Positions 5,109 through 60,659 of a stretch of DNA of 64,000 bases are shown piece after piece. How positions within the stretch are numbered: position 1 is the first letter of the stretch; the number at the start of each line of letters is the position of its first letter. Under the pieces are notes generated by a model that was not told the origin of the DNA, searched no databases, and was given only the letters and a program-made list of their open reading frames with translations. The translations under genes and the position numbers were made by a program. The stretch comes from Prevotella sp. (GTDB lineage: Bacteria; Bacteroidota; Bacteroidia; Bacteroidales; Bacteroidaceae), in assembly GCA_016291495.1 (NCBI GenBank), contig JAEEXI010000002.1, positions 113,880 to 177,879 on the forward strand, in the 5' to 3' direction.

Positions 5109-5137
5109 AATAAATTTTTTAGCGGTTTATTACTTTG

Positions 5138-5202
5138 GCGGCAGCAAATTCTTCACTCTTCACTCTTCACTTTTCACTCTTCACTTTTCACTATTCCCTT
5201 AA
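5138..5202. repeat. Solo arm: GCGGCAGCAAATT plus 7 heptamers (YTTCACT/ATTCCCT), overlapping the lutB 3' end
   Basis: Read directly: cttcact x3, tttcact, cttcact, tttcact, attccct, taa. Confidence 0.9.
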
Positions 5203-6555: not shown

Positions 6556-6712
6556 TTTAAGGTAAAAGTGAATAGTGAAAAGTGAAAAATTTACTTCCGC
6601 ACTTCTTGCTATTCATCTTTTTCTTTTGATAATCGTTAATACTATTGTTAATTCTCACTCAGGGACAGCGGTAGCAAATTATTCACTATTCCCTTTTCAC
6701 TATTCCCTTTTA
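6556..6712. repeat. Empty inverted-arm element: left arm 6556-6600, 67-bp spacer, right arm 6668-6712
   Basis: Left arm is 43/45 identical to 7444-7488; right arm is GCGGTAGCAAATT plus 4 heptamers and ends at the lutA stop codon. Confidence 0.88.
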
Positions 6713-7441
6713 CAGCCCCGCTGCTAAAATCTCTACTACGTGCTTGAACTCAATCTTCTTGCCTTGCTTGCGGGCTACACCAGCCATATGCATCAGACAA
6801 GAGCAGTCTGGACCAGTGATATACTCAGCACCCGTCTGGATATGACGCTCCACCTTGTCGAGTCCCATCTGGGCGGACACGGCGGTCTCCTCGACGCTGA
6901 ACATGCCGCCGAAGCCGCAGCACTCGTCAGGACGCTCAGGTTCCACGACATCGATGCCGTCAACCAATTGCAACAGGTCCTTGATCTTATTGAACTTCGC
7001 TACATGCTCCTCAGAAGGGGAGGAGAGTCCCAGCTCGCGAACACCATGACAGGAATTGTGCAGGCTGACCTTATGGGCAAAGGTGCCCAGACGGCGGTCG
7101 ACCTTCACCACGTCGTGCAGGAACTCGACCACGTCCATGCATCTCTTGGCGCTCTCGCACTCATGGTTCAGCAGTCGCGGATAGTTCAGACGGATAAACG
7201 CCGTACAACTGACACTGGGTGACACCACATAGTCGAAGTCCTTGAAGAGGTCGTCAAACTTCTCTGCCAAAGGAATGGCTTGTTTCTCGAATCCTGCATT
7301 GGCCATCGGCTGACCGCAGCAGGTCTGTTTCTGTGGATACGTGACATCCAGCCCCAGATGCTTCAGCAACTTATAGGTTGCCAAACCCACCTCAGGATAG
7401 ACAGCATCCACATAACAGGGAATGAATAATCCAATTTTCAT
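6710..7441 (-). CDS. lutA: Lactate utilization protein A (CCG-domain Fe-S protein)
   Basis: LFIPCYVD, QTCCGQP, HNSCHGVR, ECCGFGGMF, DCSCLMH. Confidence 0.93.
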   Translation of the reverse strand: MKIGLFIPCYVDAVYPEVGLATYKLLKHLGLDVTYPQKQTCCGQPMANAGFEKQAIPLAEKFDDLFKDFDYVVSPSVSCTAFIRLNYPRLLNHECESAKRCMDVVEFLHDVVKVDRRLGTFAHKVSLHNSCHGVRELGLSSPSEEHVAKFNKIKDLLQLVDGIDVVEPERPDECCGFGGMFSVEETAVSAQMGLDKVERHIQTGAEYITGPDCSCLMHMAGVARKQGKKIEFKHVVEILAAGL

Positions 7442-7497
7442 AGTTTAAGGTAAAAGTGAATAGTGAAAAGTGAATAATTTGCTTCCGCCATTCCTTT

Positions 7498-7875
7498 TCA
7501 CTTCATTTCATTATTTTGTTTCGTTGTTTTAATTGATGAAATCAGAAGAGCAAGTAACTCTTGGCAGTCTATATTCATGCTCTCGAATTCCTTTTCATTC
7601 AAATAATCAGTATCTTTTAGGATATTGAGCCAATAGAGGGTTTCGTTGCACTCTTTTAGTGCAATAGACAGTTTGTTGATGAAATCAGCTGGGCTTTGCG
7701 CATAGGTTGCCTCACTTACCAAAGCACCAATAGCTGTACCAGAGCGGAATATTTGATTAATCATTCCATACTCTTTAGGGCTACATTTGATAAATTTCAC
7801 CATCTTTACTATTCTCACTCCGAAGCAATAGCTTTTCTTCGTGAGTGGCGTATTATTATGTTGAATATAAGACAT
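7498..7875 (-). CDS. Four helix bundle protein (23S rRNA IVS-protein/Avd-like family)
   Basis: QIFRSGTAIGALVSEA..AQS..DFINKLSIALKECNETLYWL family signature; more AT-rich than its neighbours. Confidence 0.92.
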   Translation of the reverse strand: MSYIQHNNTPLTKKSYCFGVRIVKMVKFIKCSPKEYGMINQIFRSGTAIGALVSEATYAQSPADFINKLSIALKECNETLYWLNILKDTDYLNEKEFESMNIDCQELLALLISSIKTTKQNNEMK

Positions 7876-7967
7876 GCGGCAGCAAATCGTTTCTTTATTA
7901 TGCTTTGCCTCAGCGGCGGCAGCAAATCGTTTCTTTATTATGCTTGCCTCAGTGGCGGCAGCAAATT
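7876..7967. repeat. Tandem 40/39-bp duplication plus a third partial copy, each starting GCGGCAGCAAAT
   Basis: Copies at 7876-7915, 7916-7954 and 7955-7967. Confidence 0.92.
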
Positions 7968-7994
7968 ATTCACTTTTCACTATTCACTTTTCCC

Positions 7995-9599
7995 TTAAAT
8001 CACGTGCAACCCCAGGAACACCATCAGTCCATTCATCAATATCCAGAAGATAGCGAATGGCATCGTCCTGCGCATAATGTCGCCGTCCTGCCCCTCCATG
8101 TCGCAGGCGGCAGTAGCAATGGCGATCGACTGCGGTGAGAGCAGTTTACCGCCCTCAGAACCCGCACAGTTGGCAGCCGCGAGCCAGTTGGTCTCGCTAC
8201 CCGTAACGCCAAAGAAGGTGCCTTGGTTCACCAATCCGAGGTCGCTGGCAGCGGTAGCCTGCAACTTACCAAACAGGATGTTGGCATTGGTGGCTGATCC
8301 CGTTACGAAGGTTCCGATAGAACCAATCAGTGGAGCGAAGAAGGGGAAGGCTGCACCCGTCAGCAGGACGAGTCCCTTGGCAATGTCGTTGGTCATACCC
8401 GTGTTGTTCATCAGCATCGCCATCGCTACGAGACAGCAGATGGTCACGACCGTCTTCTGCAGGTTGAGCGTGGTCTTAGCCAACAACTTCAACAACTTGC
8501 CGATACTCATACCCTGAATCAGTCCACCGATGACGGCACCCAGGAAAATCATCAGACCTGCATTCGACAACCAACCGAACTTAAAGGTATTGCCAATGAC
8601 GGGCAACTCGAACTTGGTCACCAAAGTGTTGTTCAACAGCTCATTGACAGAAGGAACAATCTTGCTGCTGATCAGGATGAAGAAGATAATCAGTCCATAG
8701 ACACTCCATGCCTTCAGCGTCTTGACGACACCGAATTTGTGGTGTTCCACATGCACCGTATCCTTCTCAGCCTCATGGCGCAGGAACAGCTTGTTATACA
8801 GCAGCATGGCTGCGATGGCGGCTACAGAGCCCAGGATGGCGGGTGTCTCAGGACCGATGAAGTGGGCACAGCAGAACTGCACAGTGATAGAACAGGTTCC
8901 CACGAAGAGGGCAATAGTGATGTTCTTCACAATCTTCGTCTTGTCCGTCATCATCAGGATAAGGAACGGGGTGATGTAGAACATCAGCGAGAGCTGTAAT
9001 ATAATAAAGGTGGCCACCTCGCAGAGCTCCTCAGGCGTTGCCGTTCCACTTGCCGCCACTTGGTTGGCCAATGTCGTGGCAGGCAGACCGACGGCTCCGA
9101 AACCTACGGCAACCGTGTTTGCCACCAGACAGATAACGGCTGAGAACATGGGCTTGAAACCCAGTCCTATCAAGATGGCCGCAGGAATGGCTACAGCGGT
9201 GCCGAAACCAGCCATACCCTCCAGCACGCCACCAAGGCCCCACGTCAACAGCAGCACCAACAGTCCCTTGTCGCTGGTCATCTGGATAAACTGCGTCTTG
9301 ATAGTCTCAATCTCCTTCGTCTCACACAGGATATTGTAACTGAAGATGGCACAGATGATGATCAGGATAATGGGGAAACATGCCTTCAGCAGTCCTTCCA
9401 CCACTGACCATAAAGTGATGCCGAAGATACTGGCATCTGCAAACTTCTCGGGAATGATACCCATTGCAGGCACGGCAAACAATGCCAGGAGGATGGTCAC
9501 GATAAGGGTGACGATGGCACTCCTGTAGCCGGAAACCTTGAATCCCATCATCAGTACAATGAGTAACAGAATAGGGATTACGGATATTAATGCTGTCAT
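7995..9599 (-). CDS. lctP: L-lactate permease
   Basis: Many transmembrane segments; LEGMAGFGTAVAI, IGTFVTGSATNANILFG, LLSPQSIAIA. Confidence 0.93.
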   Translation of the reverse strand: MTALISVIPILLLIVLMMGFKVSGYRSAIVTLIVTILLALFAVPAMGIIPEKFADASIFGITLWSVVEGLLKACFPIILIIICAIFSYNILCETKEIETIKTQFIQMTSDKGLLVLLLTWGLGGVLEGMAGFGTAVAIPAAILIGLGFKPMFSAVICLVANTVAVGFGAVGLPATTLANQVAASGTATPEELCEVATFIILQLSLMFYITPFLILMMTDKTKIVKNITIALFVGTCSITVQFCCAHFIGPETPAILGSVAAIAAMLLYNKLFLRHEAEKDTVHVEHHKFGVVKTLKAWSVYGLIIFFILISSKIVPSVNELLNNTLVTKFELPVIGNTFKFGWLSNAGLMIFLGAVIGGLIQGMSIGKLLKLLAKTTLNLQKTVVTICCLVAMAMLMNNTGMTNDIAKGLVLLTGAAFPFFAPLIGSIGTFVTGSATNANILFGKLQATAASDLGLVNQGTFFGVTGSETNWLAAANCAGSEGGKLLSPQSIAIATAACDMEGQDGDIMRRTMPFAIFWILMNGLMVFLGLHVI

Positions 9600-56076: not shown

Positions 56077-57906
56077 TTATTTGTTTTTAGTTAGATATAT
56101 GTTTTCCGCTTGGCGGATGGCTTTTTCCTGTTGGTGGATGGCGAGATACAACTCGTTCTGCAACTTTTCGTTGTCGAGAATCTCGCGGGAGAGCGCTGTC
56201 CGCTCTTTGTCAGTAGCCTTGGGATAATACTTCCGGCTCTTCTCCAAGGCAAGAACGGTTTGCTCGTAACGCTGGCGTAGCTTGACGAGTTGCTGGTAAC
56301 GCTCCTGGTTTCCGGCTGCCTTGAAGTCTTTTACCTGATGATAGACAACCTGATCGTTGATGACTAAGGAGAAGTCTGAGTGCTTTTCCTTCGGTTGTGT
56401 CTTAGCCTGTCGCAGTCGCTTGACTGCCTCCTTGTATTGCTGTTTGTCATCCCATGTCATACTGATGCTGTCGATACGGGCAAAGCCGGCAATCTGCTCT
56501 GGCGTGTATTGCTCTGCATCATAGGTCTGGTATTTCTCCGCAGGGATGAAAGTGTAGACGCATACCATACTGTCAGGCTGGTTGCGGTCAGAGGCGAAGA
56601 AACCCAATTGGTTGTATTCGTCAATGGCAAACAGATAGTCATTGGCGGTAGAGTTGAAAGGCATGCCGATGTTCTCTGGCTTGAGGAACCTGCCTTCCGA
56701 AGCATCATAGGTAGTCATAAACAGGTCGTAGCCACCGATACTTCCTTCGCCCTCAGCGGCAAAATAGAGTGTCGTCCCGTCGGGCATCATAAAAGGATAG
56801 TTGAGGTGCTGCAGTTGCCTGTCGCTATTGATGCCGGCCAAGGTATCTGCGGCAGTCCACTGTTGTTGGAGCAGCTCCTGTGAGTAGATGCAGCTGTCGT
56901 TCCCGGCATAGAGACAACGGTTGTTGAGCGCATTCATAAATGCTATTGCCTTGGAGGCTTTCTTAGGGAAGAAAGTCGAGTAGGGGGCGATGCGTCCAGC
57001 CTCCGGTGTCAGATGGTAGGCCTTCAGGAACTGCTCTTTACGCATGACGATGCTGTCGATAAACATAATCCGTTGGGTTGCCATCGTCATTTGTCGCAGA
57101 TGCTCAGACTGTTCCGTCGGCTGCTCTTTTTTCTGTCGGACATGTTTCTTCCGTTGTGCGGGAGCCGTTACGCATACGAGAAGCAACAGCAGCAGGGTGA
57201 TTCGCTGAACCAGTTTGTTGGCTGCCTCCAAAGCATTCCAGATGGAATAGCGTGCCTCCTTATTCATCTCCTGCATCTGTTCGAAGAGTCCGTGGACGGT
57301 GGTGCGGTTGGTGTCGTGCTCATAAGGACATCGCTTCAACTGCTTTTCATAACCCTGTTGCTCCGCATAAGCCTGGATGTCAGCCTCCTCACAAAGACAT
57401 AACGGGCGGATGATAGCCAGTGGCATCTTCTCCATCTCCAGATAGGCGGGCATCGTTGAGAATTGTCCTTGGAAGGTGAGGTTCATCAACGTCGTATGGA
57501 TGATGTCGTCCTGATGATGTCCCAAGGCAATCTTATTACAGCCCAGTTCCTGTGCAAGATTGAAGAGCTGTTTGCGGCGCTGCCAGGAACATAGGAAACA
57601 GGCAGGCTTCTTATCGGAAGGCTCAAAACGGGTGGTGATGACATGAAGGGGAACACCTAAGGCATCACAGAACTGTTGCAGATAAGTGGTGTCTGTCTCA
57701 TACTGGATATTCTCCATCCGTACATGCAAGGCTTCAACGGTGAAGCGCGGAAAGAATACTTTCGATTGTCGGGCAAGCAACTCCAACAGACACAGAGAGT
57801 CTTTTCCGCCAGAGAGTCCTACGAGAATCTTATCACCTTCCTCAATAAGGCGATAGTCACGTAAGGCTTTTCGGAAGCGTTGTTGAAGTCGTTGTCCCAC
57901 ATTCAT
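56077..57906 (-). CDS. ttcA: TtcA-family PP-loop protein fused to a signal-peptide-bearing PD40-like protein
   Basis: SGGKDS, CFLC, GHHQDD, IIRPL; then RITLLLLLLVCVTAPAQ and YPFMMPDGTTLYFA...GGYDLF. Confidence 0.8.
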   Translation of the reverse strand: MNVGQRLQQRFRKALRDYRLIEEGDKILVGLSGGKDSLCLLELLARQSKVFFPRFTVEALHVRMENIQYETDTTYLQQFCDALGVPLHVITTRFEPSDKKPACFLCSWQRRKQLFNLAQELGCNKIALGHHQDDIIHTTLMNLTFQGQFSTMPAYLEMEKMPLAIIRPLCLCEEADIQAYAEQQGYEKQLKRCPYEHDTNRTTVHGLFEQMQEMNKEARYSIWNALEAANKLVQRITLLLLLLVCVTAPAQRKKHVRQKKEQPTEQSEHLRQMTMATQRIMFIDSIVMRKEQFLKAYHLTPEAGRIAPYSTFFPKKASKAIAFMNALNNRCLYAGNDSCIYSQELLQQQWTAADTLAGINSDRQLQHLNYPFMMPDGTTLYFAAEGEGSIGGYDLFMTTYDASEGRFLKPENIGMPFNSTANDYLFAIDEYNQLGFFASDRNQPDSMVCVYTFIPAEKYQTYDAEQYTPEQIAGFARIDSISMTWDDKQQYKEAVKRLRQAKTQPKEKHSDFSLVINDQVVYHQVKDFKAAGNQERYQQLVKLRQRYEQTVLALEKSRKYYPKATDKERTALSREILDNEKLQNELYLAIHQQEKAIRQAENIYLTKNK

Positions 57907-58292: not shown

Positions 58293-60659
58293 CTACTTCT
58301 TTTGCAAGTATTCATCCATATGGGCTGCCGCACGACGACCGTCGCCCATAGCAAGAATCACGGTAGCGCCACCACGGACGATGTCACCACCGGCGAAGAT
58401 TTCAGAACGAGCCGACTGCATGCCCTCGTTGACGACGATGGTGTTCTTGCGACCCAGTTCCAATCCCTTGATAGATTTAGGAACCAATGGATTGGGGGAT
58501 ACACCAACGGCAACGATAACCTGGTCAACTTCCAAGGTAACGGTCTTGCCCTCTACGGGAACAGGACTGCGACGGCCACTGGCATCTGGCTCACCGAGTT
58601 CCATGACCTGCAGAACGGCAGCCTTGACGGCACCGTTCTCGTCAGCGATGTACTCGATAGGATTGTGGAGCGTCAGGAAGTTGATACCTTCTTCCTTGGC
58701 ATGCTTCACTTCCTCCAGACGGGCAGGCATCTCTTGTTCAGAACGACGGTAGACGAGGGTAACGTTACCACCCAGACGCTTAGCCGTACGGCAAGAGTCC
58801 ATAGCGGTATTACCACCACCCACAACAAGTACGTTCTTACCCAGATTGATAGGTGTATCCGTCGTCGGGTTGGCAGCATCCATCAGGTTCACACGGGTGA
58901 GGTACTCATTTGACGACATGATATTGATGGCATTCTCGCCAGGAATATTCATGAAGTTAGGCAGACCGGCACCAGAACCTACGAAGACACCTTTGAAACC
59001 CTGCTGTTCCAGCGTCTCGACGCTGATGGTCTTACCAACGATGACGTCGGTCTGGAAGTGGACGCCCATCTTGGCAAGGTTCTCGATTTCCACGTCCACG
59101 ATCTTGTTGGGCAGACGGAACTCAGGGATACCGTATTTCAGCACACCGCCAATCTCGTGCAATGCCTCGAAGACATACACGTCATAACCTTTCTTCACCA
59201 TATCGCCAGCGAAGCTCAGTCCGGCAGGACCAGAGCCTACAACAGCAATCTTGATGCCGTTGGCAGGTGCAATCTCCGGCAGACTGATGTTGCCGCTCTC
59301 GCGCTCGTAGTCGGCAGCGAAGCGCTCCAGATAGCCGATGGCTACAGCGGGCTCGTTCATCTTCAGATGGATACACTTGCTCTCACACTGTTTCTCCTGG
59401 GGACAAACACGTCCACAGACTGCGGGTAGGGCAGAAGTGTCCTTCAGAACCTTAGCGGCAGCCAAGAAATCACCACGCTCGATATTCTTGACAAACGATG
59501 GGATGTTGATGTTGACAGGACAACCCTCGACACAGGTAGGCTTTGCGCAGTCCAGACAACGCTTGGCTTCCGTCATTGCCATCTCCTTGGTGAGTCCGAT
59601 GTTCACCTCCTCAATACGGGTGGTAGCGCGATAGACAGGGTCCAACTCCGGCATGATGACACGCTCGATGGCCGTGCGCTCCTTGGGTTTCATGCTCTTG
59701 CGGAGCTCTTCACGCCATGCAGCGTTGCGATCGGTCAGTACTTCAATGGGGTCGTTAGTGGAGTCGCTGTCCATCGTCACATCAGTGGCGGCAGCATTTT
59801 TTTCACTCTTCACTTTTCCCTCTTCACTTCCCATCAGATGCTCCTCATAATGCTCCAGTTCTTCTTGCTCGGCACGCTTGAAGGTGCCCATGCGCTTGAA
59901 CATCTCGTCCCAATCGACGAGAGCACCGTCAAATTCAGGACCGTCGATGCAGACGAACTTCGTCTTGCCACCAATCGTCAGACGACAGGCACCACACATA
60001 CCTGTACCATCAACCATAATGGTGTTGAGGCTGACCTCACAAGGGATATTGTATTTTTGGGCAGTGAGGTTGGAGAACTTCATCATGATGGGAGGGCCGA
60101 TGGCAAATACCTTGTCGACATGCGGTTCCTGTTGGATGAACTTCTCAATACCAACAGTTACCACACCTTTCTCACCATAACTGCCGTCATCGGTCATGAT
60201 GATGACTTCGTCTGATGACTCACGTACCTTATCTTCAAGGATAATCAAATCCTTTGAACGGCCTGCCATTACAGAGAGAACACGGTTGCCGGCGGCCTTC
60301 AGAGCCTGGATGATAGGCAACATGGGTGCCACACCCAGTCCACCACCGGCACATACGACCGTACCGTAGTTCTCAATGTGGGTGGGATTACCCAATGGAC
60401 CAACTACGTCAGCCACATACTCGCCTTCTTTCAAGGCACAAAGTTTCTTGGAAGAAAGTCCTACCATCTGTACGACCAGAGTAATGGTACCTTTGTCAAT
60501 ATCGGCACCGGCAATGGTCAGAGGCATACGTTCACCTTTCTGGTCAACACGTACAATCACGAAATTACCAGCCTTACGGCTTTTCGCAATCAATGGAGCC
60601 TCAATCTCAAAAAGGAAAACCTTCTCTGAGAACTGCTCTTTTCTTACAATTTTATTCAT
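58293..60659 (-). CDS. Fused NfnA-NfnB-type transhydrogenase (DHOD-B NAD-binding plus GltD-like)
   Basis: GERMPLTI, GTGMCGACR, CIDGPEFD; CLDCAKPTCVEGCP, VCPQEKQCE, GSGPAGL, GGGNTAMD. Confidence 0.88.
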   Translation of the reverse strand: MNKIVRKEQFSEKVFLFEIEAPLIAKSRKAGNFVIVRVDQKGERMPLTIAGADIDKGTITLVVQMVGLSSKKLCALKEGEYVADVVGPLGNPTHIENYGTVVCAGGGLGVAPMLPIIQALKAAGNRVLSVMAGRSKDLIILEDKVRESSDEVIIMTDDGSYGEKGVVTVGIEKFIQQEPHVDKVFAIGPPIMMKFSNLTAQKYNIPCEVSLNTIMVDGTGMCGACRLTIGGKTKFVCIDGPEFDGALVDWDEMFKRMGTFKRAEQEELEHYEEHLMGSEEGKVKSEKNAAATDVTMDSDSTNDPIEVLTDRNAAWREELRKSMKPKERTAIERVIMPELDPVYRATTRIEEVNIGLTKEMAMTEAKRCLDCAKPTCVEGCPVNINIPSFVKNIERGDFLAAAKVLKDTSALPAVCGRVCPQEKQCESKCIHLKMNEPAVAIGYLERFAADYERESGNISLPEIAPANGIKIAVVGSGPAGLSFAGDMVKKGYDVYVFEALHEIGGVLKYGIPEFRLPNKIVDVEIENLAKMGVHFQTDVIVGKTISVETLEQQGFKGVFVGSGAGLPNFMNIPGENAINIMSSNEYLTRVNLMDAANPTTDTPINLGKNVLVVGGGNTAMDSCRTAKRLGGNVTLVYRRSEQEMPARLEEVKHAKEEGINFLTLHNPIEYIADENGAVKAAVLQVMELGEPDASGRRSPVPVEGKTVTLEVDQVIVAVGVSPNPLVPKSIKGLELGRKNTIVVNEGMQSARSEIFAGGDIVRGGATVILAMGDGRRAAAHMDEYLQKK
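59784..59832. repeat. Solo arm of the GCGGCAGCA/TTCACT family inside a CDS
   Basis: AGTGGCGGCAGCATTTTTTTCACTCTTCACTTTTCCCTCTTCACTTCCC versus 7951-7994. Confidence 0.8.

Follow-up and report, generated by a model that had tools for sequence, protein, structure and literature searches.

A translated arm of a dispersed heptamer repeat family in the NfnA-NfnB linker of a rumen Prevotella

The stretch of DNA analysed here, referred to throughout as the window, comprises 64,000 nucleotides of a Prevotella genome (C18:113880-177879 of a 28-contig assembly). It carries a minus-strand open reading frame whose product joins the two parts of an NfnA-NfnB-type enzyme, the Pfam domain DHODB_Fe-S_bind belonging to the NfnA part and Fer4_20 and Pyr_redox_2 to the NfnB part. 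A hypervariable linker (approximately residues 276-292) separates these parts, and within it lies a repeat arm of the kind that also populates the junctions of a lactate-utilisation (lut) operon in the same window. The relevant features are the following, in window coordinates.

58293..60659, minus strand: NfnA-NfnB-type fusion ORF of 788 aa, with DHODB_Fe-S_bind at aa 212-248, Fer4_20 at aa 348-455 and Pyr_redox_2 at aa 470-774.
59787-59828, read on the minus strand: solo repeat arm of 42 nt (14 codons, six heptads), translated as SEEGKVKSEKNAAA, residues S278-A291 of the fusion.
59817-59819, minus strand: codon 281, GGA (Gly), within the variant unit TTCCCTC.
7444..7999, minus strand: full cassette between lctP and lutA, with arms at 7444-7490 and 7953-7999.
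7498..7875, minus strand: PF05635 gene of 125 aa, a four-helix-bundle "23S rRNA IVS protein", Avd-like (E = 1e-24).
6556..6713, minus strand: ORF-less palindrome filling the lutA-lutB junction, its arms pairing as a long hairpin.
5134..5199, minus strand: solo arm of 7 units at the lutB-lutC junction, contributing the final 8 codons of lutB together with its TGA stop (ORF end 5174).

On the plus strand, the linker arm consists of the core GGCGGCAGCATTTTT followed by TTCACTC, TTCACTT, TTCCCTC and TTCACT, with units starting at 59802, 59809 and 59816 and the last occupying 59823-59828. A previous sequence-only reading had placed a lut-type repeat here, in frame within the interdomain linker, and both points hold. 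The 13-mer AGTGGCGGCAGCA is exact at 59784-59796 and at 7951-7963, with a one-mismatch copy at 7912, giving three matches at no more than one mismatch in the whole window against 0.12 expected. Heptamer dimers TTCACTNTTCACT, including those at 59802-59828, number 19 in the window against 0.34 expected, and the product of the ORF contains ...EEHLMGSEEGKVKSEKNAAATDVTMD... around the translated arm. The bounds proposed earlier, 59784-59832 (CAGTGGCGGCAGCATTTTT TTCACTC TTCACTT TTCCCTC TTCACT TCCC), require trimming: the arm is real, but the element proper covers only 59787-59828. The leading AGT of the 13-mer corresponds to the native Thr codon ACT of arm-less orthologues, so that part of the match is coincidental; likewise, CAGTG, which would extend the match between 7951 and 59782, was excluded from the element because ACT GAT are native codons. 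The copy in this genome (G000) is a decayed family member (..GAAAAAAATGCTGCC) in which GAATTT has changed to AAAAAT. A scan of the window revealed neither a PF05635 gene nor a partner arm accompanying it, and no second heptamer array near 59.8 kb.

The lut operon displays the family in more elaborate forms. The arms of the full cassette, 47 nt each and 96% complementary, contain tandem heptamers and enclose a gene of the PF05635 family, which is considered Avd-like (PMC10053308). The palindrome at the lutA-lutB junction folds with -40.3 kcal/mol (z = -3.0), and its loop still codes for ELTIVLTIIKRKR*, resembling the C-terminal ends of intact PF05635 members (ELIKLLTSIIKKIK.. and ELIKMLMKIIKT..); it thus looks like a deletion derivative of a cassette. 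As claimed earlier, the nfnAB arm has the same orientation as the arms behind the lctP, lutA and lutB stops. The genome holds five PF05635 genes, three of them bracketed by inverted heptamer arrays, whose three types are AGTGAAN plus core, TTAATGC and AATTGAN. Other units bracket 5 of the 8 PF05635 genes of G015, G012 and G070 in like manner, bringing the total to 8 of the 13 genes examined. In our reading, the ORF-less palindromes and solo arms are derivatives of a full cassette made of two inverted arms around a PF05635 gene. Where arms are paired, they probably act like IVS stems in transcripts; the solo arm stands without a partner. The genome also contains two reverse transcriptase genes at C22:49400-51426. 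A link between reverse transcription and the arms was set aside as speculation, since nothing connects these two genes with them.

Each arm comprises a 14-nt core (GCGGNAGCAAATTN; also written GGCGGCAGCA..) and four 7-nt units TTCACTN, 42 nt in all, and the family amounts to about 60 copies in the 2.88-Mb genome. Arrays of at least three TTC[AC]CTN units occur 50 times, most of them directly preceded by GCGG[T/A/C]AGCAAATT, while the exact core occurs 38 times, with heptamers next to it in nearly all cases. Many copies are arranged as inverted pairs that diverge from facing cores. A strict 27-mer that spans the core and two units is found 30 times, compared with 0 for the reversed control, and so the element is dispersed, as had been suspected. 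Of 60 congeners, only 7 have the same 27-mer, with 1-10 copies per genome. In GTDB (one genome per GTDB species) it matches more than 117 contigs, nearly all of them from rumen MAGs that bear the label Prevotella, Prevotellaceae, Bacteroidaceae or Bacteroidales; the reversed pattern gave 0 matches across 61 genomes. Judged by these matches, the family is specific to a rumen Prevotella lineage, relatives elsewhere being almost absent. Rfam covariance models returned no family match, only sub-threshold miRNA-hairpin ones, and a literature search yielded no account of this Prevotella element. No transposase was linked to the arms, and no target-site duplication was seen when filled and empty sites were compared at HlyIII, GltB and ArgRS.

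The nfnAB copy is far from the only one in coding DNA. ORF listing combined with Pfam, with a hand-curated census and flanks read by eye, verified in-frame copies within 16 real genes (NfnAB and 15 others), about a quarter of the roughly 60, which strongly supports the inference that the element enters coding sequences. These genes are grouped below by the sense in which the arm is read.

TTCACT sense (10 genes): GT2 glycosyltransferase, RsmB/F-like methyltransferase, T9SS-CTD protein, MFS transporter, glutamate synthase large subunit, MEMO-AMMECR1 protein, HlyIII, GH2, CbiE-like methylase and the sigma2-sigma4 linker of an ECF sigma factor.
AGTGAA sense (6 genes): NfnAB, MutS2, BT4734-like protein, RluA, GH95 and ArgRS.

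Within these genes the arms occupy variable loops or linkers that differ among orthologues, and a few native codons are replaced. In HlyIII, relatives read LR-EQGY-WGW and G000 reads LR-NAAANYSLFTLHFSLN-WGW, 48 nt standing for 12 (net +12 aa) with no duplication. In a variable loop of GltB, 60 nt stand for 33 (net +9 aa), and in MutS2 the linker ahead of the Smr domain has gained a net 3 aa. One variable loop of ArgRS contains an arm in two genomes, read in the AGTGAA sense in G000 (SEELRVKSEEFATA) and in the TTCACT sense in G056 (AEANSSLFTLHSSL), and six other species have unrelated sequence there; arms of opposite orientation in a single loop point to recurrent entry, permissive loops being struck independently. 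The type III glutamine synthetase (GlnN) of Prevotella sp. RGIG3601 translates both arms, SKELRVKSEEFATA-YPAAQ-ADSSLFTLNSSL, and the TTA of its left arm has a mirror counterpart, TTAACTC, in the right one. Among 12 loci sampled in other species, one is clearly internal to a gene, three near N-termini are ambiguous (L036, L073 and L075), one lies in a doubtful ORF and the rest are junctional or intergenic. The doubtful ORF (L047) was not counted, having no Pfam match and a low-complexity translation, and a copy at C16:11236 that looked ORF-internal by eye was removed because it forms the 3' end of a transporter gene read from the opposite strand. Of the remaining copies in the genome, classified by ORF ends and flanks, most are in the AGTGAA sense and come after a stop codon or overlap one. 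In lutB, tatA, an SNF transporter and other genes, such arms provide both the stop and the final codons. Some copies fill stop-to-ATG junctions, and six are found immediately upstream of a TAnnTTTG -7 box.

The two strands of the arm differ sharply in what they allow a ribosome to read. TTCACTN repeats are free of stops in all frames, and the core in this sense closes a single frame (CGG TAG); the frames observed are used by 8 (AVANSSLFTLHSSL), 2 (GGSKFFTLHSSLFT) and 0 copies. AGTGAAN repeats, in contrast, meet a TGA within three units in every frame. When the two core-adjacent units are intact, one frame is open in this sense, and it needs a third unit that does not read TGA. In NfnAB, an A at 59819, the consensus letter, would turn codon 281 into an in-frame TGA. 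The sequence-only reading had noted that the variant unit falls exactly there, and the observation extends to all six AGTGAA-sense coding copies, each of which uses that frame with an altered third unit: GGA in NfnAB and MutS2 (SEKGKVNSEKFAAA), TTA in the other four (SE[EK]LRVKSEEFA[TA]A). Copies with a consensus third unit are non-coding or read in the TTCACT sense in 8 of 8 cases. A caveat attached to the original observation was also justified, in that GGGAA at unit 3 occurs in five non-coding arrays as well. In this frame the changed unit is a necessary condition of survival and not independent evidence of anything more. The 28-mer carrying TTA (TTAACT) occurs four times in the genome, exactly at the four TTA coding copies; this class requires either a fix after entry or a subfamily restricted to coding sequences.

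How the arm relates in time to the gene fusion was read from orthologues. About 20 congeners have full-length NfnA-NfnB fusions (58-93% identity) that lack the arm, and G026, from another family, has both halves in one open frame with no arm. In an alignment of fused orthologues, neither the sequence nor the length (11-36 aa) is constant from EHL to TD..MD, and the arm was not seen in any of the 19 other species. Most genomes with an arm-less fusion hold no family copy in the 27-mer scan of 60 congeners. Recent history was traced in metagenomic proteins of 91-96% identity, and the linker alleles encountered are listed here.

P0032, P0039, P0055, L210 and L211: consensus arm AGTGAAG AGGGAAA AGTGAAR AGTGAAG AATTTGCTGCCGCC (SEEGKVKSEEFAAA).
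P0044: AGTTAAA at the critical unit (TTA for codon 281; SEELKVKSEKFAAA), with different flanks.
P0004-type: decayed arm (SDEGKANGEKSATA).
G000: arm partly decayed.
P0042, P0047 and G015: no arm; unrelated linker of nearly equal length.

Canonical arms (..GAAGAATTTGCTGCCGCC) thus stand at orthologous sites of metagenomic relatives, and all seven nfnAB alleles read have four units. P0042 and P0047 are arm-less although their proteins are 94-95% identical. The existence of arm-less fusions, including these close ones, argues for a later entry of the arm, its linker being hypervariable by then. Comparison of these sequences therefore shows an arm younger than the fusion and confined to a small clade, and the alignment indicates that it took the place of some 14 native linker codons instead of lengthening the linker. 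The earlier suggestion that the arm marks the fusion or helped to create it was not sustained, given the roughly 20 arm-less fused congeners, most of them without the family. The linker of G017, GSNEEQVV (GAAGAG..CAAGTG), faintly resembles a decayed arm, and on this resemblance the arm could be older than assumed.

Taken as a whole, we regard it as likely that 59787-59828 is a solo arm of an IVS-type family of heptamer-armed cassettes, which entered the hypervariable linker of an already fused protein and has been tolerated there as a passenger. The arm would have entered the NfnA-NfnB linker in the ancestor of the small clade, after the fusion, and would have persisted owing to its frame-preserving length, the GGA at unit 3, the hydrophilic peptide it encodes and a host segment free of sequence constraint. 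Entry may have occurred through templated break repair, gene-conversion-like replacement or some form of cassette mobility. Replacement-type entry is favoured over cut-and-paste, as the loss of native sequence is not predicted by classical cut-and-paste insertion. With no target-site duplication, transposase or observed movement, the word "mobile" is used here on the strength of presence/absence patterns only. Decay in G000 and in the P0004-type allele, together with the arm-less close relatives, leads us to infer that the nfnAB arm is a neutral passenger. At the same time, near-consensus arms in lineages of 91-95% identity are hard to fit to a single old insertion decaying neutrally, and their persistence would need recurrent entry, gene conversion or selection. 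A broader and bolder reading, which we hold only tentatively, makes the arm a frame-preserving 14-codon module of PF05635/IVS-type cassettes, one that repeatedly overwrites hypervariable loops of rumen Prevotella housekeeping proteins by replacement, whether through templated repair, gene conversion or a cDNA-mediated route involving an Avd-like protein and a reverse transcriptase, with a gene-only TTA subfamily (unit 3 = AGTTAAG).

Selection could also have retained the arm for a function, for instance in RNA or DNA as a site for a heptamer-binding PF05635 pentamer, a restart of NfnB at M296, a slippage switch between fused and split forms or a flexible spacer. Near-consensus arms do persist across several diverged lineages, and in GlnN of RGIG3601 the TTA/TAA change between the in-frame arms is compensatory, hinting that pairing matters. 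A functional role is nevertheless improbable for the nfnAB copy: those of G000 and P0004 are visibly decaying, close relatives manage without an arm, no partner arm lies near 59.8 kb, and the seven alleles read all show four units.

Even less probable is a scenario in which an arm at an nfnA-nfnB operon junction once provided the nfnA stop, and a change of TGA to GGA or TTA then fused the two reading frames. It has some appeal, for arms elsewhere supply stops, as in lutB and tatA, and adjoin the next ATG; a single change suffices to turn TGA into GGA or into TTA; and a conserved ATG (M296) lies 15 nt downstream of the arm. In addition, nfnA and nfnB occur as two neighbouring genes in G025, G031, G039, G030 and G028, where the break maps to query residues 264-309 or thereabouts, and the arm falls in the stop/start junction region of the unfused relatives (about aa 265-305). 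Against this stand the arm-less fusions of the congeners and of G026, mostly in genomes without the family, and the arm-less alleles at 94-95% identity. A search of JGI metagenome contigs for a split (TGA) allele gave 0 matches, with just two contigs carrying any allele under that pattern, too small a sample to weigh on the question. Finally, a chance or compositional likeness of a Glu/Lys/Ser-rich linker to the repeat can be dismissed, even though low-complexity linkers are common and native codons account for 3-4 nt of the 13-mer match, because perfect 42-nt consensus arms occupy orthologous sites, the 13-mer exceeds expectation (3 observed, 0.12 expected) and the reversed control is empty in 61 genomes.

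The repeat family has partial counterparts in other bacteria. Rickettsia palindromic elements (RPE) are short dispersed palindromic repeats lying many times in frame within unrelated housekeeping genes, where they add a conserved peptide at sites compatible with the fold (PMC10969869). Like RPE and intragenic MITEs (ERIC, BOX), the Prevotella arms are dispersed, multi-copy and in frame in 16 unrelated genes. They are set apart from RPE by host phylum (Bacteroidota) and by their tandem-heptamer unit structure, by the fact that mostly single 42-nt arms are translated and not a whole element, and by being read in both orientations, with strand-specific stop avoidance and replacement of native codons. 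They share inverted arms with MITEs, but no target-site duplication or cognate transposase was found.

[quoted passage not shown] ORF-bearing IVS of Coxiella burnetii and Leptospira (S23p/PF05635) thus resemble the full cassette, with its PF05635 gene between long heptamer-containing inverted arms. The Prevotella copies, however, lie in lactate-utilisation operon junctions and coding sequences instead of helix 25 or 45 of 23S rRNA, and the family, known here from sequence alone, includes many ORF-less and solo-arm copies, some within genes. Heptameric repeats of Xanthomonas (GGGAATC) and Nostoc (GGGGAYT) are intergenic, prefer about four units and occasionally form inverted pairs; they lie between co-oriented ORFs, tens of bases from stops or starts. 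A G-quadruplex structure has been proposed for these G-rich repeats, which are reported to be depleted from coding regions (PMC4692102). Unlike these, the Prevotella arrays adjoin a unique core, and about a quarter of the copies fall in coding sequences. Cyanobacterial STRR are further arrays of heptamer units.

Rickettsia is the textbook example of selfish repeats that are translated as part of essential enzymes. The present family brings Rickettsia-like translated repeats to an abundant gut and rumen genus, and it does so with an unusually clear sequence logic: 7 and 3 both divide the arm length, no stop interrupts one strand, and the opposite strand is closed by stops in all three frames unless one specific fix is made. 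It also links solo heptamer arrays, unexplained bacterial heptamer repeats and the enigmatic PF05635/Avd-like "IVS protein" genes. For annotation, the peptides AVANSSLFTLHSSL and SEELRVKSEEFATA should be taken as repeat-derived and not as domain signatures. Furthermore, ArgRS, struck twice in opposite orientations, and GltB, GlnN, MutS2 and NfnAB offer natural experiments on protein loops that tolerate 14 extra residues.

Arms of the repeat family are also translated inside other enzymes. A type III glutamine synthetase of Prevotella sp. RGIG3601 (JAFSYY010000018.1; L089 4150-4250) contains a complete palindrome in frame, both arms included; one of the arms has changed to TTA, and the opposite arm has the matching TTAACTC, so that pairing is kept. 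In arginyl-tRNA synthetase, one variable loop holds oppositely oriented arms in two species (L220, source genome G000 C20:82384, versus L224, congener G056 C7:51979).

Among NfnA-NfnB fusion linkers without an arm, that of the closest species (L002, G015) contains a perfect 8-bp hairpin, CCCGAAGG-CTCT-CCTTCGGG, and the GSNEEQVV linker of G017 bears a faint likeness to a decayed arm. At window 56077-57906, a 609-aa ORF runs from a TtcA-like N-terminal part through a hydrophobic LLLLLV segment into a long C-terminal region.

At gene ends, arms supply upstream genes with their final codons and stop, lutB ending in KGIVKSEE and tatA in EVKSEE; in one gene-end case, a heptamer-internal GTG appears to start the next gene.

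Arms at gene ends (contigs of G000)
window 5174-5199: final codons and stop of lutB
C22:119436: final codons and stop, tatA-tatC
C16:11259, C11:126906, C12:30182: gene-end arms of the same group

Arms also accompany a multi-copy gene family with the C-terminus GGDNGGGNTGGGSDPN (G000 C9:290, C11:8930, C15:302, C18:196854 and C18:266558); the arm and (TTAATGC)n and (CCTCTYA)n arrays always follow the gene, and several copies lie at contig ends.

Inverted heptamer arrays flank 8 of the 13 PF05635 (Avd-like, 23S IVS protein) genes examined, and the 7-nt unit differs from one bracketed gene to the next (AGTGAAN, TTAATGC, AATTGAN, AAGTGAN and TTTGAAA, among others).

PF05635 genes with inverted heptamer arrays
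window 7444-7999: the cassette
C27:16347: L196
C22:64143: L197
G015: L203, L205, L207
G012: L202

G000 has two neighbouring reverse-transcriptase genes at C22:49400-51426 (L208 and L209, with ORFs of 479 aa and 744 aa); two PF05635 genes are situated 9-13 kb away from them. A long-core arm variant, GCGGTAGCTAATCGTTTCTTTAGTACGCTTGC..GCAAGAAATTA, with a small internal hairpin, occurs at window 7876-7950 and at G000 C5:360 and C22:231612; its initial portion is present in three tandem copies at window 7876-7967, ahead of the cassette gene.

Six arms of G000, reading core and then heptamers, are followed after 0-10 nt by a -7 box of the Bacteroidetes type, TAnnTTTG.

Arms before a -7 box (G000)
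C1:6197
C3:2171
C5:5383
C8:11542
C22:87856
C25:9519

These six arms may supply the upstream portion of promoters.
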